The notes below the pieces were generated by a model. It had not been told where the DNA came from, did not search any database, and saw only the letters and a program-made list of their open reading frames with translations. Shown piece after piece: positions 4,780-46,939 of a DNA stretch of 64,000 nt. Made by a program: the position numbers and the translations under genes. Source of the stretch: Heterodontus francisci (taxonomy: Eukaryota); the NCBI RefSeq assembly GCF_036365525.1, contig NC_090415.1, forward strand, positions 12,896,001 through 12,960,000. The letters run 5' to 3'. Every line of letters begins with the position of its first letter. Positions within the stretch are counted from its first letter, which is position 1.

Positions 4780-6020
4780 ATTCCTATCTCTACTGCTCTA
4801 TTTGACTATTGGATTGATAGTGTGTCTCTCGACCTTGGAATCAGTCTGGGTCTGACTACTTATTTTGTTTGTTACAGTGGAAATGACGACCTGACCATCT
4901 CAGTGTGCTTTGTGAATGATACTGTACCTACTGTGTATTGGAACGAGCTGGATGCACGTTTCCTTCTGTCAAGGAATCACGACTTTCATTCTGGTTCCTT
5001 CAAGTGTTTGCCTGCAGGAAAAGAAAGGTAACTCTTATACTTGAATAACAGCTGAGTGAGAAGACAGAAAAGTGATCAAAGTAATCTTTTCAATAATAAT
5101 CATTCTGAACAATCACAAAAGGAAAGTCAATGACACAAGTAGTGTCAGTGTCTGAGTCCACTGCAGTACTGCAGAACTCTGCTTCTACTTGCCAGATATT
5201 TGGAGCGGTTTTATAACAATTTTGTGACATTCAGAAACACCCCAAGCCCCGCACTGCTCCACGAATTGGAACACCCGATCGAGTAGTGACATTTGCGTAA
5301 GCCAGATTTCTATTTCCATGTCCCATTGTTCAACGGACAACAAGTAAGCACTGTTTAAAAAAGTGTCTTTAATCTTCTCACCTGGTCCCTTCAAATCTGC
5401 CGCATCTTTATTGTTCAGACATTTTTTTCTGCTATTCACTATCCAATAACAATAAATAGTGATACTGGATCTGAACCAGGAACATTCATTACTGAAGAAG
5501 GGTCACTGACCTGAAACGTTAACTCTGCTTCTCTCTCCACAGATACAGCCAGACCTGCTGAGTATTTCCAACATTTCTTGTTTTTATTTCAGATTTCCAG
5601 CATCCGCAGTATTTTGCTTTTTATTATAACATTCATTACTGTTTGGAGAGAGAAATCAGCAATGATTTTCAATAGTGAGTTCATCATATTCTGTCTCTCT
5701 CTCCCTGTCCAGACACTGCCTGAGAAAGACCTCTCCCTTCCCCCCCAGCTCACTCCATGTTCCAGGACCAGTTCCTGCTCCACAATGTACATTACAAACT
5801 GTCCCCCACTCCCGCTGAATGGACCCGGTAATCAATGCTAATCTATGAGCACATCGGCAGACACGGGCCCAAATCTGTTGTACTGCTGTGAGCAGATACT
5901 GTTTGTTCACTTACCCCAGGCTTGTAATGTCTCCATTTGCAGCTGATTTAAACAATCGTCCGCTCACTCAGTGAATGACGCTCAGAGGCAGTGCTGGGGG
6001 AAGGGCTGCGCATGCGCTCA
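4780..6020 (-). ncRNA. Putative spliced non-coding transcript, copy 1 (exon 1 ends 5915, exon 2 5470-5382, exon 3 starts 5011; 3' end unknown)
   Basis: Minus-strand donor GG|GTAAGT at 5914, acceptor TTCAG at 5471, donor CAG|GTGAGA at 5381, acceptor CCTTTCTTTTCCTGCAG at 5012; both acceptors are kept in the paralog at 45-46 kb; no long ORF. Confidence 0.4.
5492..5626 (+). mobile_element. Solo Penelope terminal repeat with hammerhead-like motif
   Basis: Matches the Penelope end at 9491-9630; flanked by direct repeat AACATTCATTACTG (5481-5494 and 5628-5641). Confidence 0.85.
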
Positions 6021-6070
6021 TCTCATTTTGACGTCCAAATCGACTGGCCTATATCGCGCGTGCGCAGATC
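5980..6070. promoter_or_regulatory. CpG-rich promoter module, copy 1 (NRF1 sites, CRE half-site)
   Basis: TGCGCATGCGC at 6007-6017, CGCGCGTGCGCA at 6055-6066, TGACGT. Confidence 0.55.
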
Positions 6071-6639
6071 TCTGCAGCAATTCAGCATTCAAAATTCAAT
6101 GGGAACTTTCCCCATTTCACATTCATCAATGTCCGATTTGAAAAGCCGAACATGGGGTTAGGGTGGAGGGAGGGAGGGAGGGGAGGTGTGGGGCAACATG
6201 TAACATATAAAACTGGCAGCTAGTCCAATGTAGATGTTCAAATTGTGATCTTTCTCTGCAGGGTGTTTGTTATTATTGAGCCTCTCCTCTCAAAACAATC
6301 CGACAGAAACATGGGAAGACTGAGGGATCCGGTGTGTTTGCTGGGACTTTGCAGAGTTAATTTCAGCCAGTAAAATGTTGTTTTACCCGGGTAAAACCCG
6401 AGGTCAATGAGAGTAATGTCGGAGGGCGCTCTTCCTCATTTTATTCTAAACAAGAGACACAGGCACGGAAGTACCGCGATTACACCGGACACACAATTAC
6501 AGTGACAATAGAGTTCCAGCTCCCGGTTGTTAAATGTCCTCATGTTGACCGTCATTGCTGTGATTCTCAGGGGTTAGTTCCCGATGCCTAGGTTTGGATC
6601 CCTTAAACACTCTGAACCAGGAGATCCTCGCAGTCCCTG

Positions 6640-7070
6640 TTGAAATGTTGATGGAGGACTTGGCTAAAGTAGACTGGAAACAAAGATTTTATGGTGGGAC
6701 AGTTGACGAGCAGTGGAGGACTTTCAAAGCAATTTTTCAAAGTGCTCAGCAAAAGTATATTCCAGTGAAAAGGAAGGACTGGAAGAAAAGGGGTAATCTG
6801 CCATGGGTGTCTCAGGAAATAAGGGAGGCTATCAAATTGAAAGAGAAGGCATACAATGTGGCCAAAAACAGCATGAAACTAGAAGATTGGGAAAACTTTA
6901 AAGGTCAACAGAAAGCCACAAAAAGAGCTATGAAGAAAAGTAAGAGAGAACATGAGAAAAAACTAGCACAGAATATAAAGACAGATAGCAAAAGTTTCTA
7001 TAAATATATAAAACGAAAAAGAGTGGCTAATGTAAATGTTGGTCCTTTAGAGGATGAGAAAGGGAATTAA
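6640..7070 (+). mobile_element. CR1 ORF2 internal fragment
   Basis: ORF 6594-7070 reads VDWK...W.TFK...PW...KLAQNIKTDSKSFYKYIKRKR, the CR1 endonuclease-RT linker. Confidence 0.85.
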
Positions 7071-7071
7071 G

Positions 7072-7152
7072 TGTTTTGTTAGAGATACAGCACTGAAACA
7101 GGCCCTTCGGCCCACCGAGTCTGTGCCGACCATCAACCACCCATTTATACTC
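7072..7152 (-). mobile_element. HE1-like SINE 3' fragment
   Basis: Reverse complement of the 4405-4480 tail. Confidence 0.8.
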
Positions 7153-8686
7153 TTTTCTTTCTTCTTTTGGGCCTCCTTATCTCGAGAGACAATGGATACG
7201 CGCCTGGAGGTGGTCAGTGGTTTGTGAAGCAGCGCCTGGAGTGGCTATAAAGGCCAATTCTGGAGTGACAGGCTCTTCCACAGGTGCTGCAGAGAAATTT
7301 GTTTGTTGGGGCTGTTGCACAGTTGGCTCTCCCCTTGCGCCTCTGTCTTTTTTCCTGCCAACTACTAAGTCTCTTCGACTCGCCACAATTTAGCCCTGTC
7401 TTTATGGCTGCCCGCCAGCTCTGGCGAATGCTGGCAACTGACTCCCACGACTTGTGATCAATGTCACACGATTTCATGTCGCGTTTGCAGACGTCTTTAT
7501 AACGGAGACATGGACGGCCGGTGGGTCTGATACCAGTGGCGAGCTCGCTGTACAATGTGTCTTTGGGGATCCTGCCATCTTCCATGCGGCTCACATGGCC
7601 AAGCCATCTCAAGCGCCGCTGACTCAGTAGTGTGTATAAGCTGGGGGTGTTGGCCACTTCAAGGACTTCTGTGTTGGAGATATAGTCCTGCCACCTGATG
7701 CCAAGTATTCTCCGAAGGCAGCGAAGATGGAATGAATTGAGACGTCGCTCTTGGCTGGCATACGTTGTCCAGGCCTCGCTGCCGTAGAGCAAGGTACTGA
7801 GGACACAGGCCTGATACACTCGGACTTTTGTGTTCCGTGTCAGTGCGCCATTTTCCCACACTCTCTTGGCCAGTCTGGACATAGCAGTGGAAGCCTTTCC
7901 CATGCGCTTGTTGATTTCTGCATCTAGAGACAGGTTACTGGTGATAGTTGAGCCTAGGTAGGTGAACTCTTGAACCACTTCCAGAGCGTGGTCGCCAATA
8001 TTGAATGGATGGAGCATTTCTGACATCCTGCCCCATGATGTTCGTTTTCTTGAGGCTGATGGTTAGGCCAAATTCATTGCAGGCAGACGCAAACCTGTCG
8101 ATGAGACTCTGCAGGCATTCTTCAGTGTGAGATGTTAAAGCAGCATCGTCAGCAAAGAGGAGTTCTCTGATGAGGACTTTCCGTACTTTGGACTTCGCTC
8201 TTAGACGGGCAAGGTTGAACAACCTGCCCCCTGATCTTGTGTGGAGGAAAATTCCTTCTTCAGAGGATTTGAACGCATGTGAAAGCAGCAGGGAGAAGAA
8301 AATCCCAAAAAGTGTGGGTGCGAGAACACAGCCCTGTTTCACACCACTCAGGATAGGAAAGGGCTCTGATGAGGAGCCACCATGTTGAATTGTGCCTTTC
8401 ATATTGTCATGGAATGAGGTGATGATACTTAGTAGCTTTGGTGGACATCCGATCTTTTCTAGTAGTCTGAAGAGACCACGTCTGCTGACGAGGTCAAAGG
8501 CTTTGGTGAGATCAATGAAAGCAATGTAGAGGGGCATCTGTTGTTCACGGCATTTCTCCTGTATCTGACGAAAGGAGAACAGCATGTCAATAGTCGATCT
8601 CTCTGCACGAAAGCCACACTGTGCCTCAGGGTAGACGCGCTCGGCCAGCTTCTGGAGCCTGTTCAGAGCGACTCGAGCAAAGACTT
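7153..8686 (-). mobile_element. RTE-clade LINE, 5'-truncated, one frameshift
   Basis: ORFs 7935-8686 and 7214-8026: QCGFR, FIDLTKAFD, GVKQGCVLAP, LLFADD, RRLRWLGHV and a C-terminal Cys/His knuckle. Confidence 0.93.
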
Positions 8687-9490
8687 TCAATAGTGAGTAC
8701 ATCATATTCTGTCTCTTTCTCCCTGTCCAGACACTGCCTGAGAAAGACCTCTCCCTTCCCCCCCCCAGCTCACTCCATGTTCCAGGACCAGTTCCTGCTC
8801 CACAATGTACATTACAAACTGTCCCCCACTCCCGCTGAATGGACCCGGTAATCAATGCTAATCTATGAGCACATCGGCAGACACGGGCCGAAATCTGTTG
8901 TACTGCTGTGAGCAGATACTGTTTGTTCACTTACCCCAGGCTTGTAATGTCTCCATTTGAAGCTGATTGAAACAATCACAGTGAATGGTGCTCAGAGGCA
9001 GAGCTGGGGGATGGGGTGCGCATGCGCTCTTCTCCGCGTTATGACGTCATTTTCGACTGTCCTTTCTCGCGCGTGAGCAGATCTCTGCAATAATTCAGCA
9101 AATAAACATCAATGGGAACATCCCCCAATGTCCACATTGAAAAGTCAAACATGGGGTTAGGGTGGAGGGAGGGAGGGGAAGTGTGGGGGAACATGGAACA
9201 TATAAAACTGGCAGCTGGTCCCATTTAGATGCTCAAATTGCGGACTCTGTCTGCAGGGTGTTTGTTACTATTGAGCCCCTCTTCTCAAAGCGACAGAAAC
9301 ATGGGAAGAATGAGGGAGCCGGTGTGTTTGCTGGGACTTTGCAGAGTTAATATCAGCCAGCAACATTTTATTTTACCCGAGTGAAAACCCAGGTCAATGA
9401 GAGTAATACCGGACGGTAATCTTCATCGTTTTATTTGAAACAAGAGACACGCGATTACACCGGACACACAAGCACAGTGAGAATAGAGCT
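8687..9490. repeat. Second copy of the promoter/exon-1 module (duplicate of ~5668-6515)
   Basis: Near-identical to copy 1 over the first ~300 bp; NRF1 motif at 9017-9027, palindromic CRE ATGACGTCAT at 9041-9050, donor at ~8933. Confidence 0.9.
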
Positions 9491-13508: not shown

Positions 13509-13509
13509 A

Positions 13510-14850: not shown

Positions 14851-14854
14851 TGTA

Positions 14855-20625: not shown

Positions 20626-20899
20626 CTGCCAAATCACTTCCAAGTTGTTATTGATGGTGCAATGCACAGAACACCTCCCCTCGTTGCCTTCTGCACTTTC
20701 TTTTCACTTTCCTCCTCTCCTGCACTGCGAGGTTACAGCTCACCTGTATCCTGCCATGCGCGAGTGCTCCCAGGCTTTTGGGCCACATGAGAAACGACAG
20801 TCAAATTTAATTGTTTTCTTCCAACATCTTCACACGTGCACGTTTCAGTGGGGGTCACGGATAGTGAACAGGAATGGAAACCCTGTCTGATTTTGCTAT

Positions 20900-21090
20900 T
20901 TCTCTCTCTCGCGCTCTCTTTCTCTCCCGCGCTCTCTTTCTCTCGCCCGCTCTCTTTCTCTCCCGCGCTCTCTTTCTCTCGCCCGCTCTCTTTCTCTCGC
21001 CCACTCTCTCTCGCTGTCTCACTGGCTCTCTCGCTCGCGCTCTCGTTGGCCCTCCAGCTCTCTCGCTTGCTCTCCCACTCGCTCTCACAA
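20900..21090. repeat. CT/CG-rich 18-bp minisatellite
   Basis: Alternating GCTCTCTTTCTCTCCCGC and GCTCTCTTTCTCTCGCCC units. Confidence 0.85.
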
Positions 21091-21194
21091 CCCTTGCTCA
21101 GGGACATTTAAGTCAGTTGTGTCTCCCAACCCCTGTCTCAGGTAAGGTTGCGAGCTGCATGGATCAGGGATTTTAGGTCTCTTTGTGTCGTGGT

Positions 21195-25410: not shown

Positions 25411-25423
25411 CTGAAAAAATAAA

Positions 25424-25962: not shown

Positions 25963-26352
25963 TCACTTGCCCTTCGTGCTGGGAGCGCTGGTTTTCTTGG
26001 GCAGCAGCACGGCCTGGATATTAGGCAGCACCCCGCCCTGAGCGATCGTCACCCCTCCCAGCAGCCTGTTGAGCTCCTCGTCGTTGCGGACGGCCAGCTG
26101 CAGGTGTCTGGGGATGATCCGGCTCTTCTTGTTGTCCCGGGCCGCGTTGCCGGCCAGCTCGAGGATTTCAGCTGTCAGATACTCGAGCACAGCAGCCAGA
26201 TACACCGGGGCTCCGGCACCCACCCGCTCAGCATAGTTGCCCTTTTTAAGGAACCTGTGAACACGGCCCACCGGGAACTGTAGTCCAGCTCGGGAGGAGC
26301 GGGACTTGGCCTTGGACCGAGCTTTACCACTGGTCTTCCCTCTTCCAGACAT
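25963..26352 (-). CDS. H2A: Histone H2A (129 aa)
   Basis: MSGRGK...[11 protein letters not shown]...LLPKK; true start is the ATG at 26352; stem-loop downstream, CCAAT boxes upstream. Confidence 0.97.
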
Positions 26353-27295
26353 TGCCACAATCTCACAAGCACTTTCACGAAGACTGTAGAGAACCGCCCA
26401 CATTCCTCCTCCTTGTACCTTCTGGAGGAATGGAGTGGTGGGCACTGCTGATTGGTCACTCTGCTCTGTGCTCTTCATGTAACCAATCGGAGAGCTGCTG
26501 AATTCACCAATCAGGAGACGCCAAGGAGATGTGGGCGGAAAATAACGGCGCCAAATTGTCAGACTGCAACCGATTTTTCAAATTTGAAAAGCCCGCCAAT
26601 ATATTGGGGCGACTTCAATATAGAATATTATATTTATAGTTCTTTTTTTACGGTTAAATAAATAAAACCTTTTTCATATTGTGTTATTCTACATTTGGTA
26701 ACAAGTTCCAGATTGGCTTTTACATTCTGACATCTATTCGGGTTTACTCTCTGTCCTTTTTGAAACCAGCGAGCAGAAAGTCTCTTTCACAACATTCTCC
26801 AACCGGGTACGTTTCATGTCAATTTTCATAATAATACCGCATCACTGATGAACGATTGTTTGTTATTCGTGGGAGACAACAGCGGAGTGTAGATTTTCAG
26901 TGTCAGGTGTCAGCGTGTGAGACGGAGGGTTCCGACACCACCCGGGGGTTCTAGATAATGTACTTATTAATTTTTGAGGTCAAACTTGAACTCGGGAAAT
27001 AAGTGACTGCGAACTGATGTATGTGCGTTAAATCAGCTTTTATTGTCGAAATACAGAAAAGGAGCCGAATATGAACACGTCCGAGAACAAACCTCACAAA
27101 TGGTCAGTGGTCAGTAATTTATGTACGGGACATTATTAGTTAGAGACAGAAAGATCGCACGGGCAGTGAAACTGCATTAACCAGAATCTATGGGAGTAAA
27201 ACAGAGATCACAAAGGCAAGGACACTTGATATATAAATCAATATAAGTCGATACTATACAGACAATGTTGTAGCTTTTTCAGAGAAGTTGTGGGT

Positions 27296-27311
27296 GGCTC
27301 TTAAAAGAGCC
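27296..27311 (-). terminator. Histone 3' stem-loop (H2B)
   Basis: GGCTCTTTTAAGAGCC followed by ACCCA. Confidence 0.95.
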
Positions 27312-27350
27312 TTTTTGTGTTTTGGGTGTGTTTCAGTACATTGTGGATAT

Positions 27351-27731
27351 TTACTTGGAGCTGGTGTACTTGGTGACCGCCTTTGTACCTTCCGACACGG
27401 CGTGTTTGGCCAGCTCCCCGGGCAGCAGCAGGCGCACGGCGGTCTGGATCTCCCGGGAGCTGATGGTGCTGCGTTTGTTGTAATGGGCCAGGCGGGAAGC
27501 CTCACGCGCGATTCGCTCGAAAATATCATTCACAAACGAATTCATGATGCTCATGGCCTTGGAGGAGATGCCGGTGTCAGGGTGAACCTGCTTCATCACT
27601 TTGTACACGTAGATGGAGTAACTTTCTTTCCTGGATTTTCTCCGTTTCTTGCTGCCCTTTGCTGGCGCCTTCTTCAGAGCTTTCTTTGCGCCCTTCTTGG
27701 AAGGTGCTGCAGTTTTCTTCTCATCAACCAT
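27351..27731 (-). CDS. H2B: Histone H2B (126 aa)
   Basis: MVDEKK...[12 protein letters not shown]...[10 protein letters not shown]; ATG at 27731. Confidence 0.96.
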
Positions 27732-27784
27732 GATCACGATCAACTTCAGACACAGAATAACCGAAATTTCGCTCCAAGCTCGCA

Positions 27785-27850
27785 TTTTACAGACATCCCC
27801 AGAACCCTATGCTAATGAAGGATGGGAGATGACCATGTTCATGATTGGCT
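27785..27850 (-). promoter_or_regulatory. H2B promoter with variant TATA, octamer-like site and CCAAT
   Basis: TGTAAAA (27785-27791), ATTAGCAT (27809-27816) and CCAAT (~27844) on the minus strand. Confidence 0.6.
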
Positions 27851-32933: not shown

Positions 32934-33219
32934 TTCTTGTTTTCATTATGAAAGATTTATATCGTGACCATTACATAATTCTGGCTGAAACTAGGCGAGG
33001 CAAGGCAACTTATTATTACTGGCGACAAATATTCAGGAAAGACAGGTCTGAAAAAATATGGAGGGTTGTGGAGTTGAAATAATTGATCAAATATAATATG
33101 ATAACACTGGCAGGGATGATGTTTTTGAGGTGTTAACAAAAGCATCTATTTGGTCACATATGTGGAATATGGCAGGAGGAAATGCATAGACATTCTGGGT
33201 CGCGAAATATTTGTCCTTC

Positions 33220-34180
33220 CCTGCCGGACACGTGAGTGTGGGATTCATTCTGTGCCCATCAGTATGTGATATTTACCCGTGGCTTTTACTCCGTATCTGT
33301 CAATCTATGGTCAATGATTTGGTCATTTCATTCAATAATTTCAATCTTCAATAGGTGATCCTGTTTTATTTTTCTCCGTAACATTCAGTTTCTAAATGGG
33401 TGATGATGGGTTTTGTTCTGTGAGTGTGGGTTTTGTTATGCATCTGTTAATATCTGATTTTGGAGTCTGGGCATTTCTCTTTATCTGTTAATTTCTGAAT
33501 TGTGAATTTGGATTTTAATCTGCACATGTCAGTTTCTGGTATGAAAGGTTTTTTGATTTTGTCTCTGTACCTGTTAGTAAGTGGCATTTTTGTGTAGCTT
33601 TACACTGCACATGTTAATTGATGACATGCCAGCGTTGTTTTCACTCGACATGTCAGTCTCTGGTTTGGAGGCCTCAACTGTGTTCTGTACCCATCAGATG
33701 TCTACATATAAGGATGGGTTTTAACCTGTTTCTTTCAATCTGTTGTATGTAAGTACTGTTTATTATCTGTATCTGTAAGTTTCTGATGAACGAATGTGGA
33801 CTGTATCACATCCCTGTCAGTGGTTCATTAAGAGATATTTTACAAGGTACCTGCCAGTTCTGATATGTGAGTGTGGGTTGTGATCTACATCTGGCCGTTT
33901 CTGGTACGAGACATGAGCATTGTTTTCACTCTGTGTACGTTAGCCTCAAGTGTCAGAAGCTGGGTTTAGTCATACATCTCATTCTCTGCTGTATGATTGT
34001 GGATTTACATCTGTACAAGTTAGTTTCTGGCACAGGCTTGTGAATTTTATTCTGTATGCCAATTTCTGGTATGTGAGTGTGTGTTTTTTCTGTCCTGTCA
34101 CTTTCTGCTGAACTGGATGGTGGATTTGCTTTGGATCTGTGAATTTCTGCTATCTGAATGTTGGCTTTCCTTTACATTTG
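33220..34180. repeat. Degenerate ~40-bp tandem array, segment 1
   Basis: Recurring approximate unit TACTCTGTACCTGTCAGTTTCTGATATGTGAATGTGGATTT. Confidence 0.75.
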
Positions 34181-36955
34181 TCATAGAGTTATACAGCACA
34201 GAAACAGGCCCTTTTGGCCCACTGTGTCTTTGCCTCCCATCAAGCATGAACCTATTCGAATCACATTTTCCAGCACTTGGCCCATAGTCTTGTATGCTAT
34301 GACGTTTCACGTGTTCATCAAAATCCTTCTCAAATGCTATGAGGGGTCCTGCCTCTACCAGCCCTTCAGGTAGTGTGTTCCAGATTCCAACCACACTCTG
34401 CGTGAAGTATTTTCTCCTCAAGTCCCCTCTAAACCTGCTGCCCATTACTTAAATCTATCTCCCCTGGTTGTTGATCCCTCCACTGAGGGAACGTTTTCTT
34501 CCGATCTGTACTATCAATGTCCCGTGTAATTTTGTATACCTCAATCAGTTCCCCTCTCAGCCTTCTCTGCTCCAAGGAAAACAACCCTAGCCAATCCAGT
34601 CTCTCTTCATAACTGAAATGCCACAGCCCAGGTAACATCCTGGTAAATCTCCTCTGCACCTTCTGCATTGCAATCACGTCCTTCCTTTGGTGAGTTGACC
34701 AGAAATGTACACAGTACTCCAGCTGTGGCCTAACTAGCATTTCATTCAGCTCCCTCTTAACCTCCCTGCTCCTTTATTCTATGCCTCGGCTAACAAAGAC
34801 AAGTATCCCATATGCCTTCCTAACCACCTTATCTCCCCGTGCTTCTGCCTTCAGTGATCTATGGACAAGTACACCAATGTCCCTCAGACCCTCTGTACAT
34901 CTTAGGATCTGGCCATTCATTGTATATTCTCTTGCCTTGTTAGGCCTCCCAAAATGCATCACCTCACATTTTCGCACTTCTCTGGATTAAATTCCATTTG
35001 CCACTGCTCCACACATCTTACCAGCCCATCTATATCATCCTGTAATCTAAGGCTTACCTCCTCACTATTTATGACACCAATTTTCGTGTCATCTGTGAAC
35101 TTACTGATCATATCTACTGCATTCACGTCTAAATCATTCATGTACACTACAAACAGCAATGGTCCCAGCACCGATCGCTGTGGTACACCACTGATCACAA
35201 ACTTTAACTCACAAAAACAACGCTCGACCATCACCCTCTGCCTCCTGCCACTAAGCCAATTTTGTATCCAAATTACCAAATTGGCCTGGATCCCATGGGC
35301 TCTTACCTTCTTAACCAATCTCCCATGTGGGACCTTATCTGAAGCCTTACTGAAGTCCATTTAGATAACATCAACTGCCTTACCCTCATCTACACATCTA
35401 GTCATCTCCTCAAAAAATTCAATCAACTTTGTTAGACACGATTTTTTTTTTCAAGTCACCTCCTCACTCTGCTTATTATTAAATATTTTTATTAATTACC
35501 ACCTCCCCCCCCCCCCCCCCCCCCACCGCCCCACTGCCACTCCCCGACATTTTCTATTCTCCTCTGGCCTCCGCTGTTTTCTGCCCCAAGCCTCTTTTTT
35601 TTTTTCCTTATCCAATCCTCTATTTCATTTGACATCCAGGGTTCCCTGGATTTGTTGGTCCTACGCTTCACATTTATGGGAACATGTTGGCCCTGAACTC
35701 TCATTATTTCCTTTTTGAATGACTCCCACTAGTCTGATGTAGACTTTCCTATAAGTAGCTTCTCGCAGTCCACTTTGGCCAGATCCTGTTTTATCATATT
35801 AAAATCGGTCTTCCCCAAATTGAGTACATTTATTTCTGGTACCTCTTTGTCCTTTTCCAAAACTACCTTAAATATTACAGAGTTAATGCCACTATCCCCG
35901 AAATGCTCCCCCACTGACACTCCTACCACTTGTCCGGCTTCACTCCCTAGGATTAGGTCGAGCACGGCTCCTTCTTTGGTCGGACTTTCTACCTGCTGGC
36001 TCAAAAAGATCTCCTGTATGCACCTTAAGAATTCTGCCTCCTTTAAGCCATTTGCACTAAGACGATCCCAGTTGATATTGGGTAAGTTGAAATCCCCGAC
36101 AATTATTACCCTATTATTTTTACACCTCTCTGAGATTTGCCTACATATCTGCTCCTCTATCTCTCACTGACTGTTTGGAGGCCTGTCGTACACTCCCAGC
36201 CAAGTGATTGCCCCCCTTTTTGTATTTATGTTCTGCCCATGTGGATCATTTGAGGAATGTTCGAAGATATCATCCCTCCTTATACAGTAATTGACTCCTT
36301 GATCAACTGTGCACTGCCACCTCCTATTTTATACCCTCCCCTGTCATGCCTTAAGATTCAATACCCTGGAATATTGAGCAACCAGTCCTGCCCTTCCCTC
36401 AACCATGTCTCCGTGAAAGCAATAATATCATATTCCCATGTGTTAATAAATGGCCTCAATTCATCTGCCTTACTAGTAAGATTCCTTGCGTTAAAATAGA
36501 TGCAATCCAGCCTTGCAGTGTTAATTTGTGTCTTAACATGTCTGCATTTTCTCTGCCTTCCAGCCTGACTCAGTTTCTCTTCTATATTTGACTGTGCATC
36601 AACCCTTACTGCACCTCCCCTCTGTATCCCACCCCCTTGCCAAATTAGTTTGCAACCACCACCCACCCCCCACCCCCTCCCCCAAAAGCACGTGCAAACC
36701 TCCCAGCAAGGCTGTTGGTCCCGATCCAGTTCAGGTGCAATCTGTCCAACTTGTACAATTCCCACCTTGGCCAGAAACAGACCCAGTGATCCAGGAAATT
36801 AAAGCCCTCCCTCCTGCACTATCTCTTCAGCCACACATTCATCTGCTCTATCCTCCTATTCCTAGACTCACCTGCACGTGGCAGCGGGGGTAATCCAGTG
36901 ATTACAACCTTTGCGGACCCCTTTTCTTTAATCTGCTACCGAGCTTCCGAAGTTC
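34181..36955 (-). mobile_element. CR1 LINE (ORF1 esterase end, endonuclease and RT; internally deleted)
   Basis: ORF fragments CIYFNARNL..IIAFTETWL, LDLILG, DFSKA.DKVPH, RPQLEYC; 3' tail at 34181. Confidence 0.88.
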
Positions 36956-37770
36956 ATGTTGCATGACCTCATCCCTCTTTGTACCTGTCAGTTTCTGGTA
37001 TGGAATAAAGATCTTTACTCTGTACCTGCTAGTTGCTGGCAAGTGATTGTGGCATCAATCCATATCTGTCAGAGTGTGATGTTACTTCAGATTTTACTCT
37101 TCAGCTGTCAGTTTCTGACATGTGAATATGGATTTTCCTCATTCTGGTCACTTACTGCAATGTAAGTCACTCCTTTATTCTGTGCCTGTCAGTTTCAGGT
37201 CTGGAAGAAAGATTTTTTTCATTACCTTTTATAATCTGGCAAGTGAATGTGAGATCACCCTGTATCTGTCAGTTTGTGACATATTACTGTGACTTTTACT
37301 CTTCACTTGTCAGTTTCTGATACGTGAATGTTTATTTTATTCTGGGTGCCTGTCAGATACTAAAATGCAAGTATGTTTGTTACTTGTAATTAATTGGAGT
37401 GTTTACTCTTGATCTGTCAGTCTCTGGAATGTGAATGTGGCTCTTACTCTGTGTCTGTCTGTATTGGATTTGCCAGCAAGTGTTTTTCTTTGTCTTTCTG
37501 TTCCTGACATGTGAATGTGAATTTTACTATGTACCTCTCAGTTACTGGTATGTGATTGTGGTTTTATTCTGTCTCCACGAGCCTATGATTAATGATTGCA
37601 GCTTGTGACCAAGGCATGTCAGTATCTTGTTTGCACATGCCCATTCTTATGTGCATGTTGCTTTATGGGAAATGACTAAAGGATTTACTCTTTCTTCTGC
37701 CATATTACTTCTTTGGCTTCAAGGGCTGGTCAGAGACTGGGAATTCTGTGATGAGCAACTCATGTCCTAA

Positions 37771-38030
37771 CTTAGTTTAGTTTAGAGATACAGCACTGCA
37801 ACAGGCCCGTCGGCCCACCGAGTCTGTGCCGACCATCAACCACCCATTTATACTAATCCTCCACTAATTCCATGTTCCAACCACATCCCCACCTGTCCCT
37901 ATATTTCCCAACCACCTATCTATATTAGGGGCAATTTATAATGGCCAATTTACCTATCAACCTGCAAGTCATTGGCATGTGGGAGGAAACTGGAGCACCC
38001 GGAGAAAACCCACGCAGACACAGGGAGAAC
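37771..38030 (-). mobile_element. HE1-like V-SINE, 5'-truncated
   Basis: Reverse complement of 4255-4490. Confidence 0.85.
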
Positions 38031-38440
38031 TTCCCAAAGTCTTTCCACCACCTACAAGCCACATGTCAGAATTCTGATGGATTACTCTCCACTTGCTTGG
38101 TTGAGTGCAGCTCTAAAAACACTGAAGAAGCTTGATACCATCCAGGACAAATCAGCAGGCTTGATTATCTTACCATTCACCAGGTTATGCATTTACTCCC
38201 TCCACCACCAGTGCACAGTGTGTCCCATCTAAAAGATGTACTGCATCAACCTGAGGAAGTACCGTACAACAGCACCTTCCAAACCCATGACATCTGCTAC
38301 TGACTGGAACATGGGCAGCAAGCTTATGAGAACATTACCACCTGCAATTTCATCTCTAGTTTGCACAACATCCTGGCTTCAAAATATAACACCATTCCTT
38401 CGACATCACTCAGCCCAAATTCTGGAACTCCCACTTTTAT
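38031..38440 (+). mobile_element. Fragment of the CR1/L2-group LINE
   Basis: SQSLSTTYK..MDYSPLAW..LKKLDTIQDK matches ORF 50038-50634. Confidence 0.8.
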
Positions 38441-38877
38441 GAATGACATTCAATCTGTAGCTGTTCATCAATGGTGCAGTCTGAGTGTAGAACTTATTCT
38501 GCATCTGCCACTCTGAAAGACAGGATCTGTTTGTTTATATTTAAGGAACAATGAAGGATCTCTTACACACCTAGATCTGTCCAAATATCTGACCCTCTTT
38601 GTATGGTATGTGTGTGAGGGATTCATTCTTTATCTCAGAATGTGGAATGTGACTATTCTGTTTTTTATCTCTGTCACTTACTGATCTGTGCATGTGCACT
38701 TTTCACTCTACCTGCCAGCTTCTGATGTGAGTGGATTTTTTTATGTACCTGTCATTTACTGATGAATTGAATGGTGGTTTTGGTTTGAATCGCTCACTTT
38801 CTCTTACGTGAATATGAGTATTCCTTCGTACTTGTCAATTGCTGGTATAAGAGTAAGATCTTTAAACTGCACCTAAT

Positions 38878-39116
38878 ACAAAGCAAAATACTGTTAATGC
38901 TGGAATTTGGAAATAAAAGGAGAAAATTCGGTAAATACACAGCAGGACTGCCAGCATCTGTGGAGACAGAAACAGAGTTAGCCTTTCAGGTCAATGACCT
39001 TTCATCAGAAAGGTCTGTCCTGATCAAAGGTCATTGACCTGAAATGTGAACGGAATTTCTCTGGCACAGGTGCTGCCAGACTTGCAGAGTATTTCCAGAA
39101 TTTTACATTTTCATTT
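38878..39116. mobile_element. Head-to-head inverted pair of Penelope terminal repeats
   Basis: 38878-39008 (minus) and 39020-39116 (plus), both similar to 5492-5626. Confidence 0.75.
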
Positions 39117-39994
39117 ACACTGTACATGGAGATGTACATTTTCTGGCAAGTGAATGTGGGATCAATATTTAACCTTTCAGTTCTGATATACAAATGAGGA
39201 TTTTACCCAGCATGTTGTCAGTTCCTGCAGTGCAATTATCTGATTTATTCTGTAACTTTATGATTGTGGTAATTGATTGTGGGTTTGACCCTACATCTAC
39301 CAGTCTCTGTAATGTGAATGTGGCTATTACTCTGTATTTATCTGTGTACAATTTGTGAGTGTTTGTTTTCCTCTCCGTGTCTGTTTCTGACATGTAAATG
39401 TGGATTTTGCTATGTACCTCAGTTACTTTATGTGTATGTGCTTTATTCTGTTTCTGTCCATCTGTCGTGAGTGTAATATTTTCCCTGTACCTATCAGCAT
39501 CACACTTCTTTGTATGGCCATTATTCTGCACTTGTTGGTTTATGGTACTGCTTGAATTACTCTTTCCCTCTCATTCCCTGATATGCTACTGTAAATTTTC
39601 CTCTTCACTTGTCAGATTCCACTCTGTGATAATGTTGTTTCACTGTCTGTCTGCATCTGGTATGCTATTGTAAGATTTACTGTGTGCCCATCAGCTTCTG
39701 GTATTTAAATATGAAGTTCACATTGTAACATTCAATTTGATCTGTGTGAATCTGCTTCGACCTTGAACTGGCAGTTTCTATTCTGTGAGTGTACATTTAC
39801 AAGTGCACTTGTTAATTTCTGCTAAATAACTGTTGGTTTTACTCTGTGCATGTCAGTTGCTGCAATGGGAAGATGGGAAAGGTTTTTAATTCTGAAAATG
39901 GCTATTACTGATAAGTGAGTGTGGGTTTTACTCTGTAACCCTCATTCTCTGGTATTTGAGTTTGTGTCTTTTTCTTCTGGTTAGCTGTTATGCT

Positions 39995-42900
39995 CACTTC
40001 TCTGACATAAACCTCCTTTGAACCGCCTCCAACACATTTACTTCCTTCCTTAAAGAAGGAGACCAAAACTGCACACAGTGTTCTAGATGTCGTCTCACCA
40101 ATGACCTGTATAATTGAAGTATAACAGGCTTATTGTCATTTTCAATTCCTCTCATAATAATGGATAACATTCCATTTGCCTTCTTTATGTCTTGCTGTAA
40201 ATGCACACTAACGTTTTTGACTCATGCACCAGAACACCTAGATCCCTCTACACCCCAGAATTCTGCAGTCACGCTACACTGATGTATCTTTTGATCTTCC
40301 TGACAAAGTGAACAACTTCACATTTTTTTCACATTGTACACCATCTGCCAGATTTTTGCCCTGTCACTCAACCTATCTAGATCAATCTGCAACCTCCTTA
40401 TGTCCTCTTCACAACATACTTTCCTACCTATCTTTGTTTCATCTGCAAATTTAGCTGCCATGCCATCGCTCCCCTCATCTAAATCATTGATATAAATTGT
40501 AAAAAGTGGAGATCCCAGCACTCGTCACATCCTGCCAATCAGAAAAGGACCCATTTATGCATTCTCTGTTTTCTGCCAGCCAGTCAACCTTCTATCCATG
40601 CCAATATGTTACCCACTACACCATGAGCTCATACACTGCACAATAACCTTTTACGTGGCACCTTGTCAAATACCTTCTGGAAATCCAAGTACTTTATGTC
40701 AAAGGGTACCCCTTTATCCACAGTGCATGTTAGTCCTTCAAAGAACTTCAATAAATCAGTTAAACATGATTTCCTCTTCACAAAACCATGCTGAATATTC
40801 CTGATGACCTTGTGTTTTTCTAAATGCCCAGCTATAGCCTCCTCATTGAGCAATTCTACCACCTTTTTGATCACAGGGGTTAAGCTCTCGGGGTCTATAG
40901 TTACCCTGATGAAGGGTCACTGACCTGAAATGTTAACTCTCCATCTCTCTCCACAGATGCTGCCAGACCTGCTGAGTATTTCCCACATTTATTGTTTTTA
41001 TTTCAAATTTCCAGCATCTGCAGTATTTTGCTTTAAGATTACTATAGTTACCCTTTCTCTGCCTCCCTACCTTCTCGAATAGAGGGGTTATATTTTCTAC
41101 AGTCCAGTCTGAAGCAACCTTTCCAGAATCTTGTGAATTTTGAAAAATTAACACCCACAAATCTATTAGTTCAGTAGCCACCATTTTAAGACACTAGGAT
41201 GAACACCAACAGGACCCAGGGACTTGTCAGCCCACAGCTCCATCAGTTTACTCAGTGCTGCTTCCCTGGTGATTGTAATTTCAACAAGTTCCTCTCTTCC
41301 ATCCACCTCTTGATTTACAGCTATTACGGGAATGATTTTTGTCTCCGCTATTGTTAAGACAGAAGGAATTTTTTTATTCATTTCTTCTGCCATTTTCTTA
41401 TTACCAAACTTTAACTCCCAATTTTCATTCCATAGAGGACCAACACTCAATTTACTTAAACTTTTCCTTTTCAAATACCGACAGAAACCCTTGCTATCCG
41501 TTTTTAGATTTCTAGCTAGCTTACTCCCATGCTCTAATTTCTTTTCTCCTGATTAACCTTTGGTCAGAATATATAGAATGACACAGAATGACTCAATCAT
41601 CTGACCTGCCATTCATCTTTGCACAATTCTCTGCCTTTTCATTCAGGTTGATGCCTTCCTTAACTTCTTTAATCAACCATGGATTGGGGATCCTCCCCTT
41701 GGAATTATTCTTTATAGTAGGGATATACTTATTTTAAGTACTCTGAAATATCCACTTAAATGTCTGCCACTGCTTCTCAATTGATCTATCTCCTGGCCCA
41801 GTAACCCAGTTCACTTCAGCGAGCTCAGCTTTTATGCCCACATAGTTGCCCTTATTTATGTTTACAATACTAGTCTTTGACACACTCCTCTCACTTTTAA
41901 ACTGGATGCAAACTTCAGTCACATTGTGATCGTTGCTACCAAGAGGTGCCTTTATCTGAGGTCATTAATTAATCCTTTCAAATTGCACAATACCCAGTCG
42001 AAAATAACCTGCTCGCCGGATGGTTCTAGAACATGCTGCTCGAAGAAACGATCTCGAAAGCATTCTATGAACTCCTCATACAGGCTTCTATTACCAATCT
42101 GATTTTTTCCAGTTTATATGTTGACTAAAATCACCCATGATTATTTCCATCCCTTTATCACAAGCACCCATCAGTTATTCTTGAAGACTTCATCCTACAT
42201 TGGGATTACTGTCTGGGGGCCTGTCGACGACTCCCACGAGTGCCTTTTTCCCTGACTATTCCTCATCTCCACTCAAACCGATTCTACATCCAGATCTCCT
42301 GAACCAAGGTCATGTTTAACTATTGCAACAATACGATCCTTGATTAACAGTGTCACCCCTCCACCTTTACCTCGCTTCCTATTCTTCTTGAATGTTATAT
42401 ATCCATCAATATTGAGGACCCAATCCTTGTCATCCTGCAACCATGTCTCCATAATGGCTATGAGATCATATTTATTTACTTCAACATGTGCTATCAGTTC
42501 CTCTACTTTGTTATGAACGCTACGTGCATTCAGATAAAGAGCCTTGGGTTTTACCTTTTTGTTATCTTTGTCACATCTAGTGTTGACTGTCGGTCTGCTC
42601 TTAGGTTTTTTTTCCTCTTTGCCCCTTCCTGCCATTCACTGACCTTCATTTCCCCTGTTACTATTGTGTTCTCCTGCCCTGACTCTAACCCTTGATTTGT
42701 TACATCTACTAAAGCTTGATCCCTCTACCCCTTTGTTTAGATCAAGTATCTCTCGACATCCCTAGTTATATGGTTTTCTCGAACACTGGTCCCAGCTCAG
42801 TTCAGGTATAGACTGTCCGAACGGTACAGCCTCCACTTTCCCTAGTACTGGTGCCAGTGCCCCACAAACTGAACCTGACTTCTCCCACACCAGTCTTGGC
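39995..42900 (-). mobile_element. CR1 LINE (ORF1 end to RT) with a Penelope terminal repeat inserted at 40906-41035
   Basis: LYLNARSV..IAIMETWL, QHGFVK, DFQKVFD, KFAD; insert TSD CTATAGTTACCCT at 40895-40907 and 41042-41054. Confidence 0.9.
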
Positions 42901-42904
42901 GGGT

Positions 42905-44850
42905 GTAAGTTTCACTGTATATCTCTCAATCCCAAGTCTACAATTTACCTCTGTCAGTTTTGGATTTTGAGTGTGGCTTTATCTGTACCTGTCAGTTTGT
43001 TTTATGTGAGAAACATCTTATTCAGTACCTTTCAGCTTCTTGTGTGTAAAAGTATCTGGGTTGTACTTTGTCCCCATCAGTACATGGTATGTGAGTGTGG
43101 ATTTGACACTTAATATTACATTCTTGGGTGTATGAGTGAGTGTTCACAGTTTGTCTTTGATTATCTGGTATGCCAATTTAAGGTTTGACTTGTGCCCTTA
43201 AATGTCTCATGTGTAGCTGAGGCTTTTAACCTCTCTCTGTCACTGTCTGGTATAAGAGTAAGAGTTTCAGTCTGGTTTTTGAGTGTGGATTTTACACCAC
43301 ATCTCTCCACGCTCTCGGATGTGAATGTGATATTTAATCTGTACATGCCAGTTTCTGACATGTAGCTGTGTGGTTTACTTTGTACATTGTCATTCTCTGA
43401 TATGTGACTGCCAATTTTATTCTGAACCTGTCTGTTTTTTATTTCTGTTTGTGTGAGTTTTAACCTGTATCTGTCAGTATCTGGTATATGAATCTTCTTA
43501 ATTATGTGCGTGTTGATCTGTATCTGTGAGGGTCTGAAGTGCAATTGTTAGGTTTTCTTTGTACCTGTCAGTGTCTCTTATGGATGAGAGACTTTCACTC
43601 CCTTAACTGTTAACTTCTTGCAAATCATTATGGATTTCACACTGTGTCAGTCTCTGGTAGGTAAATGTGGCATTTATACTGTATCTCCTAATTTCTGATA
43701 TGTGAATGTTGATTTTAATGTGTACCTCTTGGTTTCTCCTATGTGAGTCTTTTTACAATCTGTTTCTGCCAGTTTCTCATATGTGAGGGTGGCATTTATT
43801 CTGTACCTGTTACTTTCCGAAATGTGGGAAGAATTTACTCTTTCCCTGTCAGTTGCTGATATGTGAATGTGGGTTTATTCTGGATCTTTCAATCTTTGGA
43901 AGTTGAGTCCATGCTTTACCTTCTATCTGTTTGCTTCTGTTAAGTGAATGAGGGATTAAATCTGTTCCAGTGCATTGATTGTATATGAATGTAGTTTTCA
44001 GTCTGTACCTGTCAGTTTATGAAAAATGAAGGTGGTTTTATTTATCTTTCTGCCAGATTTTGTTATGTGACTGTTGATTTATTCTGTACCTGTTATTTTC
44101 TAGGATATGATTGTGGTTTTTGATCTGTACCTGTCAGTTTCTATTACTTGAGTGAGTTTTACTTTGCACCAGTTGTCTTCTGTTATGTGAGTGTCAGTTC
44201 TAAGCCGCACCGGTAAAGTTAAGGTAATATAGTGTGGGTTTATTCTGTATCTTTCAAACTCTAGTGTGTGACATGGGACCTTTCTCTGAATCTGTCGATT
44301 TCTGCTCTGTAACTGTACGTTTTAAACTGCAACTTACAGTTCCTGATAGGTGTGTGAGCACATTTTCTTTTTTCTGCAGCTATCTATGTCTACTACAATG
44401 TCTATGTGTGTTATTCCTAGATTTCAATTTCTGTTATTGAAGAATTGATTTTCCTTTGTGCTTCTCAGTCTCTGCAATGTGTCCATGTCTGTTACTGGTA
44501 ACTGTCTGTCTCTGTTAGGTGACTCTGGTTTTATTCTCTATCTGACAGTCTCTTGCCTGTGAGTGGGTTAATTTTCTTCTCTGTAACTGTCAGTTTCCTT
44601 TCTGTGGCTGAATGTTTTAATCTTTACTTAAACTTTTTCATAATTTGTAAATGTGAATTTCACTTTGTGCCTGTCTGTTTACATTATATGAATGTGTTTA
44701 TTTTTATTTTGTCAACATCAGTTTCAGGCATGTGAGGGTGAGATTCACTGTCTCCAGGATGCACCCTCTTGTGAGATTGACAGAGTGCCTTTTAATCTGA
44801 TAGTGGGTTCTGCTTTTGAACTTTACCTAACTTTCAGCAGTATTGATTTG
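42905..44850. repeat. Degenerate ~40-bp tandem array, segment 3
   Basis: CTGTACCTGT recurs at 44003, 44084 and 44125, giving ~40-41 bp spacing. Confidence 0.8.
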
Positions 44851-45407
44851 GAATGGATTGGATACAATGTCTGTCTCTTCTGATTTGTTTGATTGCTGAA
44901 TTGGAAATGTGCCTCTAAACATAGGATCAGTGAGAGTTTGACTACATCTGCTTCTTGTGACAATGCCATGAACTGAAGGCCTATGGGAGTGGTACTGTAC
45001 CTTGTCTGTGATGGAAGGAGCCGACTGCACTTGCCCTTGTGCCTGGGAATCATCACATTCATTCTGCTCCCTTGAACTATTTGCCTACAGAAAGGAAGAA
45101 AACTATGTCTTGTAAGTCACGATCAGTTGAGTTGGAAGCTAGAAAAGAGATTAATGTAACATTTCAATTAATAATATTTATGACTAATCACAAAGGCGAA
45201 CCAAAAATACAAAGAATATCACTGTCTGATTCCACTGCAGCTCTCAGCATCTGCTGACGAGGTGTCTTGGCAGTTTCACAGCAATTTTGGGACATCCAGA
45301 AACAAGCCAACATCTACACTGCTCCAAGGTTGGAACAACCTGATGGAGCAGGGATATTTGTGCAGGTCAGGTTTCTATTGCTATCTGGCATTATAATGTA
45401 ATAACCT

Positions 45408-46040
45408 GAGAACTAGGAGCAGGAGTCAGCCATTCAGCCTCTCCAGCCTGATCCACCATTCAATAAAATCATGTCTGATTTGATCTTGGCTTCAGCTCCA
45501 TTATCCTGCCTGACTAAAAACCCATTACTCCCTTGTAGATAAAAAAAACTCATCCTGGAATATATTTAATCATCAGCATCCACTGCTCTCTTAGGTATAG
45601 AATTCCTTAGATTAATGACGCTTTGAGAGATGAAATTCTCCCTTACCTCCGTCTAAAATGGGAGACTCCTTATTCTGAAACTGTGCGGCGTGGTTCTTGA
45701 TTCCCTCAAGAGGGGAGATATCTTTGCAGGATCTACTCTGTCAAGACCCCTCAGAATCTTACATTTTTTCGATAAGATTAGATCTGATTATTACAAACTC
45801 CAATGAGTGTAACACAACCTGCTCAACCTTTTCCTCATCACGCAACCTATTCATCGCAGGAAGCAACCGAACGAACCTTGCCTGAACTGCATCCGATGCA
45901 CGTATACATCCCTCATCAGCGCAGGAGACCACAACTGTATCCAGTAATCCAGGTGAGGTCTCAACAACACCCTGCAGAGTTGGAGAAAGACTTTCCTACA
46001 TTTATATTCCATCCCCCTTGCAATAAATGCCAACAGTCCG
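45408..46040 (-). mobile_element. CR1 3' fragment
   Basis: LLAFIARGMEYK..RPHLDYWIQLWSP; 3' tail at 45410. Confidence 0.8.
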
Positions 46041-46294
46041 GCTCTGTTTTCACTATTCACTTTTCAATAACAACAAACAGCGTGAAATAGGAGCTAAACC
46101 AGGGACAAGTATTACAGGATGAGGAGAGAAAACAGCCATGAATTTCAACAGCAGCTTCTTCACCTTTTGTCTCACTTACGCAGTGCACACGCAGCCCGAA
46201 AAATGCCTCTGCCTTCCGCCGCTCACTCCATGTTACAGGATCACTTCCTGCCTCACTCTGTCTCTTGCAAACAAATGGACGTTCAGCAGCCGAG

Positions 46295-46372
46295 CTGGCG
46301 GAAGGGAGCGCATGCGTTCTCAAGGTTCGCAAGAATCTGCGGTGTGGGCGGGGCTATGCCGCGCATGCGCTT
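46295..46372. promoter_or_regulatory. CpG-rich promoter module, copy 3 (two NRF1 sites, GC box, ETS-like site)
   Basis: GCGCATGCG at 46308-46316, GCGCATGCGC at 46361-46370, GGGCGGGG, CGGAAG. Confidence 0.55.
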
Positions 46373-46939
46373 CTTTAGGCAACGTTGTGAAATTCAATAA
46401 AATCAATTGGAACTTTATCCAGTTGAGTTTTTTCACATTTTGAGCAATGGAACCGGGGCTGTGGGTAAGATAGTGATGTTTCCCTTCTGGGAGATTACCC
46501 CTTTGTGAAATTCAACTTGAGATTATTCTCTGCAGTATGCTTGCTGTCTTTCAGCCCGGCTTCTCAAAGCAATCCTCTGAGGGAGTCGGTGTGTTTGCTG
46601 GGATCGCGCAGGAGTTAATATCTGACAATAACAGTCCTACATTCATGTCAGCAGATTTAAACTGTCGGTCACTGAGAGTCATAGCGAACGGTTTGAGCTG
46701 AAAGATTGCAGAGAGCTCAACAGGGCAGAAACAAGTTAAATTTGGGACATTGTGTGCCTCACTTTCGGACACGTCCTCGGAATGTGAGATTAATAATGTG
46801 GCTGCCTGTTGCACCATATCAGTGAGAGATGAGTTTGTATCGTCGCTCTCCCCTGGCGGAACTTTCGAGATGAAACAAATCTTACAGTTCAGCCTACAAC
46901 TCAATAATTACAGGCTCAGTCCTGGGCAAAATATTGGAA

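Follow-up and report, generated by a model that had tools for sequence, protein, structure and literature searches.

A 64,000-nt window of the Heterodontus francisci genome (GCF_036365525.1, NC_090415.1, positions 12,896,001–12,960,000, forward strand), which is the whole stretch of DNA analysed here, raises the question of whether a histone repeat unit carries, beside its histone genes, a promoter that sends spliced RNA into a tandem repeat. The first-pass annotation had proposed a family of spliced lncRNA genes embedded in the histone repeat unit and duplicated with it, each RNA carrying roughly 100 or more repeats. The reading we prefer, to which we give about even credence, is that of a duplicated CpG-rich NRF1-type promoter with a predicted minus-strand spliced non-coding leader RNA, accompanied by a passenger minisatellite.

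The module itself is present in three copies, as alignments of copy 1 with copy 2 and of copy 1 with copy 3 confirm. Copy 1 and copy 2 match at 84.8% (5658–6513 against 8676–9488); copy 2 ends inside intron 1 and lacks any acceptor. Copies 1 and 3 are related through five collinear blocks, at 63–73%, that extend from 4693/44778 to 6373/46631. Inserted SINE and CR1 pieces aside, no terminal repeats, target duplications or similarity to reverse transcriptases or transposases were found in the module. A search of sequencing runs with 42900–46760 listed four matches (shares 0.14–0.39), all from one sample and one study of presumed type and with no RNA data set among them, an outcome that speaks neither for nor against transcription. 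Exact-pattern scans of metagenome contigs gave 0 matches, and a literature search beyond whose reach most subscription journals lay found no publication on the module or on the 41-bp array. Only copy 3 lies between histone genes, whose names we assign presumptively from their translations, and the family as a whole is not embedded in the histone repeat unit. Duplication along with the histone genes is shown for the array, which occurs twice upstream of an H2B–H2A pair; the module is seen there once only, and a fourth copy of it is predicted beyond array 2, to the right of the window's end.

Table 1. Features of the module copies, the 41-bp array and the histone genes (window coordinates; a slash marks the exon/intron boundary).
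Feature	Positions	Strand	Remarks
Copy 1, upstream part of module	6129..6513	.	Plus-strand GT 6157 and CAG 6261 inside
Copy 1, promoter core	5977..6128	-	Two NRF1-type palindromes (6008, 6056), CpG-rich
Copy 1, predicted exon 1 (start inferred)	5915..5985	-	ATG 5936; donor GG/GTAAGT at 5914
Copy 1, predicted intron 1 (444 nt)	5471..5914	-	Dead counterpart (~5703) of copy-3 donor; SINE
Copy 1, predicted exon 2 (89 nt)	5382..5470	-	Weak acceptor; strong donor CAG/GTGAGA at 5381
Copy 1, predicted intron 2 (370 nt)	5012..5381	-	Identity with copy 3 72.5% (305 columns)
Copy 1, predicted last exon	3722..5011	-	Very strong acceptor; SINE ~4180–4485; one clear 41-bp unit (3749)
Copy 2 (only promoter, exon 1 and a portion of intron 1)	8676..9488	-	LINE cuts copy off
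Copy 3, promoter core	46278..46435	-	Palindrome 46361, near-palindrome ~46305, GC box 46346 (presumptive labels)
Copy 3, predicted exon 1 (to 46180) and 86-nt intron 1	46094..46277	-	Donor TGC/GTAAGT at 46179
Copy 3, exon-2 remnant, then CR1 fragment	45400..46093	-	CR1 replaces exon-2 donor
Copy 3, start of predicted last exon	44750..45084	-	Highest acceptor score in the window
Array block contiguous with copy 3	42980..44750	.	37 units
Further array blocks, histone unit 1	33200..39975	.	19 + 14 + 22 units; CR1, LINE and SINE insertions between
Array blocks, histone unit 2	59390..62855	.	19 + 10 units; unit-for-unit orthologues of those in histone unit 1
H2A and H2B, unit 1	25963..27785	-	3' stem-loop on each
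H1, H4, H3 (plus), H2A (minus), 5'-truncated H2B (minus), next unit	52765..58845	.	

Evidence for a promoter comes from the core of the module, where the earlier description of CpG-rich cores with NRF1 palindromes proves accurate. The palindrome GCGCATGCGC occurs at 6008 in copy 1, 9018 in copy 2 and 46361 in copy 3, and a further one, GCGCGTGCGC, at 6056 in copy 1; we take these to be NRF1-type sites. Three perfect palindromes are observed in the window against 0.004–0.03 expected by chance. The observed/expected CpG ratio is 0.97–1.08 in the cores and 0.32–0.40 downstream, and copies 1 and 3 share 6 of 9 CpGs in the core but 0 of 11 in intron 2 and exon 3 (Fisher p = 0.002). In addition, a GTAAGT lies ~95–130 bases downstream of a palindrome in each long copy, there being 10 such motifs on that strand in the window. 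A CpG ratio of ~1.0, retained CpGs and palindromes are what the sequence of a Pol II promoter for a lncRNA gene should display, and the promoter core looks maintained.

Splice signals on the minus strand are found where they had been placed in copy 1, at 5914, 5471, 5381 and 5012, and include two strong donors in the correct order, equalled by 24 (5914, score 9.5) and 12 (5381) sites in 128 kb. Copy 3 likewise retains both acceptors, with CAG in copy 1 changed to TAG, as had been reported. The donors, on the other hand, differ between the two copies. Donor 5914 and the ATG sit in a ~190-bp block absent from copy 3; the possibility that this block hides an internal duplicate of copy 3 exon 1 was rejected (p = 0.14–0.59). 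The copy 3 donor at 46179 aligns to ~5703 in copy 1, where the GT is lost, and the distance from 5471 to 5703, minus a SINE with a 14-bp target duplication (5495–5627), is 86 nt, the length of copy-3 intron 1. Nothing in copy 3 corresponds to donor 5381; a CR1 fragment occupies ~45400–46039 there and supplies new donor-like sites at 45646 and 45762.

The two shared acceptors differ greatly in strength. The middle one is weak in both copies, with 1070 and 688 window sites scoring equally well, whereas the last acceptor ranks first (copy 3) and third (copy 1) among the AG sites in 128 kb, as scored with a frequency matrix. A matrix-free count gives a similar picture: a YAG for which 13 or all 14 of 14 bases are pyrimidines is found 11 times among 9209 AG sites, and two of the three that are followed by G are the last acceptors of copies 1 and 3. 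In simulations of neutral drift an acceptor score of at least 14 was kept in 2–4% of runs and one of at least 12 in 8–13%, figures that are only moderate evidence because the acceptor had been singled out for its strength. The first-pass annotation had named, among the outcomes that would refute its model, splice dinucleotides no better conserved than their flanks across copies, and for the dinucleotides this is what is seen: two of four are kept, compared with a background of 48 of 92 AG and 32 of 66 GT, although the last acceptor keeps its strength. Nor is the exon better kept than the intron, identity being 208/305 (68.2%) in exon 3 and 221/305 (72.5%) in intron 2 (p = 0.29).

The 17-aa ORF METLQAWDPVSLFIVIG, followed by a stop, which spliced copy 1 was said to encode exclusively, is real in the modelled transcript, but four further ORFs of 19–23 aa accompany it, so that "only" must be taken to mean that no long ORF is present. 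The longest ATG ORFs of the modelled transcripts, 23 aa in copy 1 and 79 aa in copy 3, are not shared, and the modelled ORFs have no credible protein relatives or families, as expected of an RNA with no coding capacity. At gathering score Rfam identifies six histone stem-loops only; two chance-level matches (E 0.34 and 0.71) fall in 3700–9600 and none in 42900–47000, and no intron contains a known small RNA that would mark a snoRNA or microRNA host gene.

The ~40-bp tandem array of the earlier description is also real, with a unit of 41 bp: this distance accounts for 51 of the 94 neighbour spacings below 60 bp, all units lie on one strand, and shuffled sequence yields 0–0.05 matches. Autocorrelation and a profile detect it; Tandem Repeats Finder misses it entirely. 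Mean pairwise identity between units is 53% (68% to the consensus), but units agree with their counterparts in the next histone unit at 91% and 86%, from which we conclude that there is no homogenisation and that the array is frozen. Array sequence makes up 4580 of the 11885 bases (39%) of its span in unit 1, the remaining 61% being non-array, with two CR1s, another LINE piece and SINEs as interruptions, and block order differs between the arrays of the two histone units. The CR1s inside the span are all on the minus strand; with three or four insertions, this is not significant. At 4.6 kb in five blocks, the array is not a long homogenised one of the newt satellite type. One block, A, has been preserved between the two histone units (91.5% of 1230) better than neighbouring LINE pieces (85% and 84%) or histone spacers (77%), with p = 3e-6 against LINE B; a non-array flank (32948–33098) is also 93% identical, and block D only 86%. 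The better-kept block may be a product of mosaic gene conversion, or could reflect constraint. The array is likely to be an old, decaying minisatellite that travels as a passenger of the H2B–H2A pair.

Only in copy 3 would an exon run from the last acceptor straight into a multi-kilobase array, as had been claimed (37 units, 42982–44750), the first clear unit lying ~335 bases into the predicted last exon. The region 3722–5011 of copy 1 holds a single clear unit besides faint traces, and copy 2 has none, so that by sequence the mature RNAs of the family would carry 37, 1 and 0 units. The figure of roughly 100 or more repeats per RNA is not supported: it pools 92 units of histone unit 1 with 29 of unit 2, the latter sitting on the other side of the module. 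Since only 37 units are contiguous, even 92 would need a 12-kb exon reading through ~7 kb of non-array sequence.

Different readings of these features can be weighed against one another. It may be that the promoter core alone is alive, as a bidirectional or enhancer-like element acting perhaps mainly on the plus strand, with minus-strand splice signals that are chance or relics of an old gene and no stable spliced RNA; we consider this possible though rather unlikely. It is consistent with the sharing of two of four splice dinucleotides at a background of ~50%, with the turnover of both donors and the lack of an acceptor in copy 2, with the SINE only 24 bases from the copy 1 middle acceptor and the CR1 that removed the copy 3 exon-2 donor, and with a plus-strand GT and CAG retained in all three copies, on the strength of which the main direction of transcription could be plus. 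It does not explain why the last acceptor is extreme in both long copies or why copy 1 has two strong, ordered donors, and the plus-strand sites are mostly weak (donor scores 3.8, 3.8 and 7.5; acceptor scores 10.7, 5.7 and 4.6). Leader exons with one large last exon are also the layout of clustered zinc-finger genes, and a decayed protein-coding gene, with non-coding leaders, a large last exon that once held an ORF, and the array as a wrecked coding repeat, would fit that layout. Exon 3 aligns gap-free over its first 106 bases, with mismatches of 11/6/13 by codon position and 85 open codons in copy 3, and when the minus strand of the array is translated, words recur and stretches of 128 and 133 aa are free of stops. 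Nevertheless, we find this reading improbable: the codon pattern is not significant (p = 0.27), the frame has two stops in copy 1, exon-3 indels between the copies measure 1, 1, 1, 4 and 9, and for the 85-aa frame none of 10 candidates scored in a search confined to longer proteins. A coding array was rejected because the 41-bp unit breaks frame, the consensus has stops on both strands, and no Pfam family reaches the cut-off in any of nine translations. It has no relatives; the sole match among 1.84 billion proteins, P0001 (E 6e-13 summed over 29 stretches), is a sum of 27-bit pieces on an unrelated 5144-aa repeat protein.

The remaining readings give the array itself a function. In the model of the first-pass annotation, a spliced lncRNA with ~100 protein-binding repeats builds or regulates the histone locus body. 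A live-looking promoter with a strong acceptor aimed straight at the array, the position of the array upstream of H2B in both histone units, the relatively well-kept block A and weak-looking minus-strand AATAAA sites would all suit such a scaffold, but the small number of contiguous units, their divergence and interruption, the near absence of units from copies 1 and 2, the two copies outside histone units and an exon no better kept than its intron make it very unlikely. The proposed strand of the array is, moreover, poor in donor-like sites (11, compared with 46 on the other strand; shuffles 14/14) and rich in AATAAA (23 compared with 1; shuffles 10.5/0.9), which is the pattern of the non-productive direction in the U1-PAS model (PMC5881035). 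The argument that these AATAAA sites must shorten the RNA is weakened, since U/GU-rich downstream sequence is missing (U 15–29% in 25 of 25) and the sites may not stop the transcript. The same asymmetry could turn the array into a one-way valve within the spacer: the minus strand would stop transcription before the H2B promoter, and the plus strand would let read-through pass. Plus-strand read-through could originate from H1, H4 and H3 or, backwards, from the H2B promoter, as with the satellite read-through of newt oocytes (PMC5615363, PMC2114352); the array ends ~0.8 kb upstream of the unit-1 H2B ATG when mobile inserts are removed, and the geometry would carry read-through from H3 into array 2 on the plus strand. 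We give the valve least credence, as the asymmetry stems from the repeated copying of a single consensus unit and the sites are hence not independent, and AATAAA is a minority variant of the 41-bp consensus with no downstream element. Highly improbable, too, is an arrangement in which every histone unit has its own promoter and a spliced RNA through the array toward H2B, with the RNA or the strand-asymmetric array organising or insulating the locus.

We favour a Pol II promoter that has been duplicated, together with a non-coding leader that is likely spliced, on account of the CpG retention, the NRF1 sites and the strong last acceptor. These elements of the proposed lncRNA family are supported, and the ~100-repeat RNA is not. 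NRF1 binding would protect the core from germ-line methylation, and Pol II would initiate there, probably bidirectionally. RNA from the minus strand would be spliced via short leader exons to the strong acceptor. RNA from copy 1 would end near a pair of AATAAA sites (4046 and 4061), ~950 bases into the last exon, and would contain almost no repeats, whereas that from copy 3 would enter the first array block and end within AATAAA-bearing array, well below 100 units. What evolution has kept would be promoter activity and perhaps one splicing event rather than the sequence of the RNA or the number of repeats, and the module copies likely give rise to a modest spliced non-coding RNA.

Multi-copy CpG-island/NRF1 promoters with short non-coding leaders are ordinary 5' ends of lncRNAs and genes that have spread by segmental duplication. 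The module resembles them in its unmethylated-looking core with palindromes, a first donor near the start, short exons, a strong last acceptor, splice-site turnover and exonisable transposon pieces; it differs in lying in a histone spacer and pointing into a minisatellite. Newt satellite 1 flanks histone clusters, and the shark locus shares with newt histone loci the presence of tandem repeats in the spacer of the histone repeat units, although the shark array is small, has a 41-bp unit, is only 53% alike and is interrupted. Satellite transcripts of the newt Notophthalmus are ascribed to read-through from upstream gene promoters (PMC5615363; for satellite 2, PMC2114352). In contrast, the RNA proposed here would have its own promoter and splice sites, and the array lies behind H2A and H2B, which are oriented away from it. 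Xist, NEAT1, Firre and hsr-omega are architectural repeat lncRNAs, with which the module shares a putative Pol II promoter upstream of possibly exonic tandem repeats; unlike in these RNAs, repeat sequence and number have no sign of retention between copies, and there is no Rfam match. In Drosophila, according to PMC5588930, GA-repeat/CLAMP elements nucleate the histone locus body. They too are repeats inside the histone repeat unit, but the Drosophila GA-repeat is a short protein-bound DNA element in the H3-H4 promoter and not a transcribed array.

On the most likely reading, the locus contains a promoter and leader that have been duplicated and are ordinary, though not previously described, along with a passenger minisatellite. 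They would be of use in annotating histone clusters in cartilaginous fishes and would illustrate how splice donors turn over behind a promoter that is retained. Were the bolder reading true, a vertebrate histone repeat unit would contain a repeat RNA of its own, and one could ask directly at this locus whether an lncRNA encoded there seeds the histone locus body.

The best-supported part of the module is its core, the CpG-rich, promoter-like part. The palindrome GCGCATGCGC has three occurrences, one in each module copy (chance expectation 0.004-0.03), and the CpG observed/expected ratio of the cores, 0.97-1.08, falls to 0.32-0.40 downstream of them. Within the core, six of nine CpGs of copy 1 survive in copy 3; in intron 2 and exon 3 taken together none of 11 does (p=0.002), and the distal upstream part retains two of six. 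Since methylated CpG decays over time, this retention suggests that the core is unmethylated in the germ line, and thus a live promoter-like element. Copies 1 and 2 are 84.8% identical (5658-6513 against 8676-9488), copy 2 ending within intron 1 at a LINE, and copies 1 and 3 align in five collinear blocks of 63-73% identity. Intron 1 (5670-5914) is 98.8% alike in copies 1 and 2 (242/245), whereas exon 1, the core and the upstream part reach no more than 81-92%; this contrast reflects either gene conversion of recent date or a mosaic in the assembly.

The first-pass annotation proposed a spliced minus-strand RNA, and every splice site that it named is present at the sequence level. Copy 1 has strong donors (only 24 and 12 sites are as good in the 128 kb of both window strands), the copy 3 donor is weak by score, and neither copy has a strong middle acceptor. 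In copy 1 the counterpart of the copy 3 donor (46179) lies near 5703, its GTAAGT changed to GAGAGA; with a SINE removed, the 86 bases from ~5703 to the acceptor in copy 1 equal the copy 3 intron length exactly. Donor 5914 of copy 1 lies, with the ATG of a 17-residue open reading frame, within ~190 bases absent from copy 3, and a CR1 LINE fragment occupies the place of the second donor there. Comparison with copy 3 led us to reject this ~190-base block as a hidden duplicate. With the donors of each copy thus unmatched in the other, only two of four splice dinucleotides are common to copies 1 and 3, background retention on the minus strand of aligned blocks being 48/92 for AG and 32/66 for GT.

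That the core is live and the splice signals are relics is a reading we consider rather unlikely. Exon 3 is not better preserved than intron 2 between copies 1 and 3 (208/305 and 221/305 identical, p=0.29); exon 2 is identical at 36/45 positions. The last acceptor, however, scores highest of all sites in the 128 kb in copy 3, and third highest in copy 1, under a matrix of splice-site frequencies. Independently of the matrix, three YAG-G sites have at least 13 of 14 pyrimidines, two of them these last acceptors (two of 11 when any base may follow YAG). In 20000 runs of simulated neutral drift, using the observed substitution table, an acceptor score of at least 14 is retained in 2-4% and of at least 12 in 8-13%. 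These results favour real splicing, and the overall pattern appears to be one of promoter and last acceptor retained, with donors turned over between them. That the module is a decayed coding gene is improbable: protein and family searches found no credible relatives of array or module translations, and the 41-bp unit length of the array breaks the reading frame. On the plus strand, a GT...CAG pair of mostly weak sites, spanning 71-105 nt upstream of the core, is present in all three copies, possibly marking a divergent spliced transcript.

The array, a 41-bp minisatellite, lies upstream of the H2B-H2A pair in both histone units, ~0.8 kb from the H2B ATG with inserts removed. Scanning with a 41-column profile at the lower threshold gives 122 units in the seven blocks and five further matches elsewhere; the reverse strand has eight, and shuffled sequence 0.05 per shuffle. 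Thirty-seven units are contiguous with copy 3, 55 more lie in unit 1 past transposon insertions and 29 in unit 2; beside copy 1 there is one, other traces being only faint. Of the 11885 bases that the hypothetical full-length exon would span, 4580 are array. At the higher threshold (114 units), units are 68% identical to the consensus and 53% to each other, yet 91% and 86% to the array units at matching positions of the next histone unit, so that homogenisation had ceased before the histone unit duplicated. Array blocks differ in order between units; the common blocks (32948-43672 and 59136-63999) have the order A, B, C, D in unit 1, which in unit 2 becomes A, C, D, B, the arrangement expected from tandem duplication followed by deletion. 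Block A is better preserved than neighbouring LINE pieces and spacers; we interpret this as mosaic conversion, given that the non-array flank of block A is equally high and block D is not; constraint is the alternative. CR1 pieces within the module-array span (34180-46039, 60390-64000) lie on the minus strand and those outside mostly on the plus, a pattern of few independent events.

The histone genes are of the replication type, with 3' stem-loops, and LINE and SINE sequence makes up most of the window outside them. The H1 tail has additional KKVSSKKTAA-type repeats, and H4 (both in the 52765-54553 region) begins MTGRG, the usual start being MSGRG.

Features of the window; histone names are those that the translations indicate
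Feature	Position	Strand	Remark
GA-rich compound repeat, 2.9 kb	850-3728		directly beyond last exon of copy 1; holds the window's sole assembly gap (163 N)
GT...CAG pair, copy 1	6157-6261	plus	kept
GT...CAG pair, copy 2	9156-9256	plus	kept
GT...CAG pair, copy 3	46465-46535	plus	kept
Decayed sequence	17400-18900	minus	likeness, by eye, to a pogo/Tigger-type transposase gene
CT/CG repeat island	20750-21150		CpG-rich
Inverted, decayed H2B 3' fragment	25236-25500		75% to 27277-27444; then match to H3 3' flank with worn stem-loop; H3 gene itself missing from this unit
H2A + H2B	25963-27785	minus	one histone unit
H1, H4, H3	52765-56990	plus	next histone unit
H2A	57514-57954	minus	second histone unit
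H2B, 5'-truncated	near 58820 (58760-58845)		second unit; last few codons and stem-loop remain, gene body and promoter deleted

Within the window, the suggestion that the module is embedded in the histone unit stands for copy 3; copies 1 and 2 lie 16-19 kb from the closest histone gene there. An RNA scaffolding the histone locus is, in our view, very improbable. The module does not belong with architectural repeat lncRNAs on sequence, because the repeats are not common to its copies, nor does the array belong with homogenised satellites. Newt satellite RNA is attributed to read-through rather than to a spliced gene of its own (PMC5615363, PMC2114352, PMC12046345). Large histone clusters are reported in a stingray preprint (10.1101/2025.06.08.657570), whose main text contains neither "satellite" nor "lncRNA"; a literature search for descriptions of the module or array, at the level of listings, found nothing relevant.

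Least probable of all is that the array acts as a one-way valve. Its blocks (33200-44750, 59390-62855) hold 46 donor-like sites on the plus strand and 11 on the minus (shuffles 13.8 and 14.2), and one and 23 AATAAA (shuffles 0.9 and 10.5), counts that are non-independent since all sites descend from one unit. In the plus-strand consensus, only a few bases separate one acceptor-like word and two donor-like ones. In the U1-PAS model the early-ending direction is donor-poor and AATAAA-rich (PMC5881035), so that the minus strand, along which the RNA was proposed to run, would be the early-ending one. A caution is that all 25 minus-strand AATAAA in 32900-45084 lack a U-rich stretch downstream.

The first-pass annotation thus holds in part, both as observation and as interpretation. 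The module would work much as do the 5' ends of ordinary CpG-island genes or lncRNAs. The likeliest reading, to which we give about an even chance, is that a duplicated promoter drives a modest spliced non-coding RNA, whose transcription, splicing, ends and location we infer, and that the array is a passenger.
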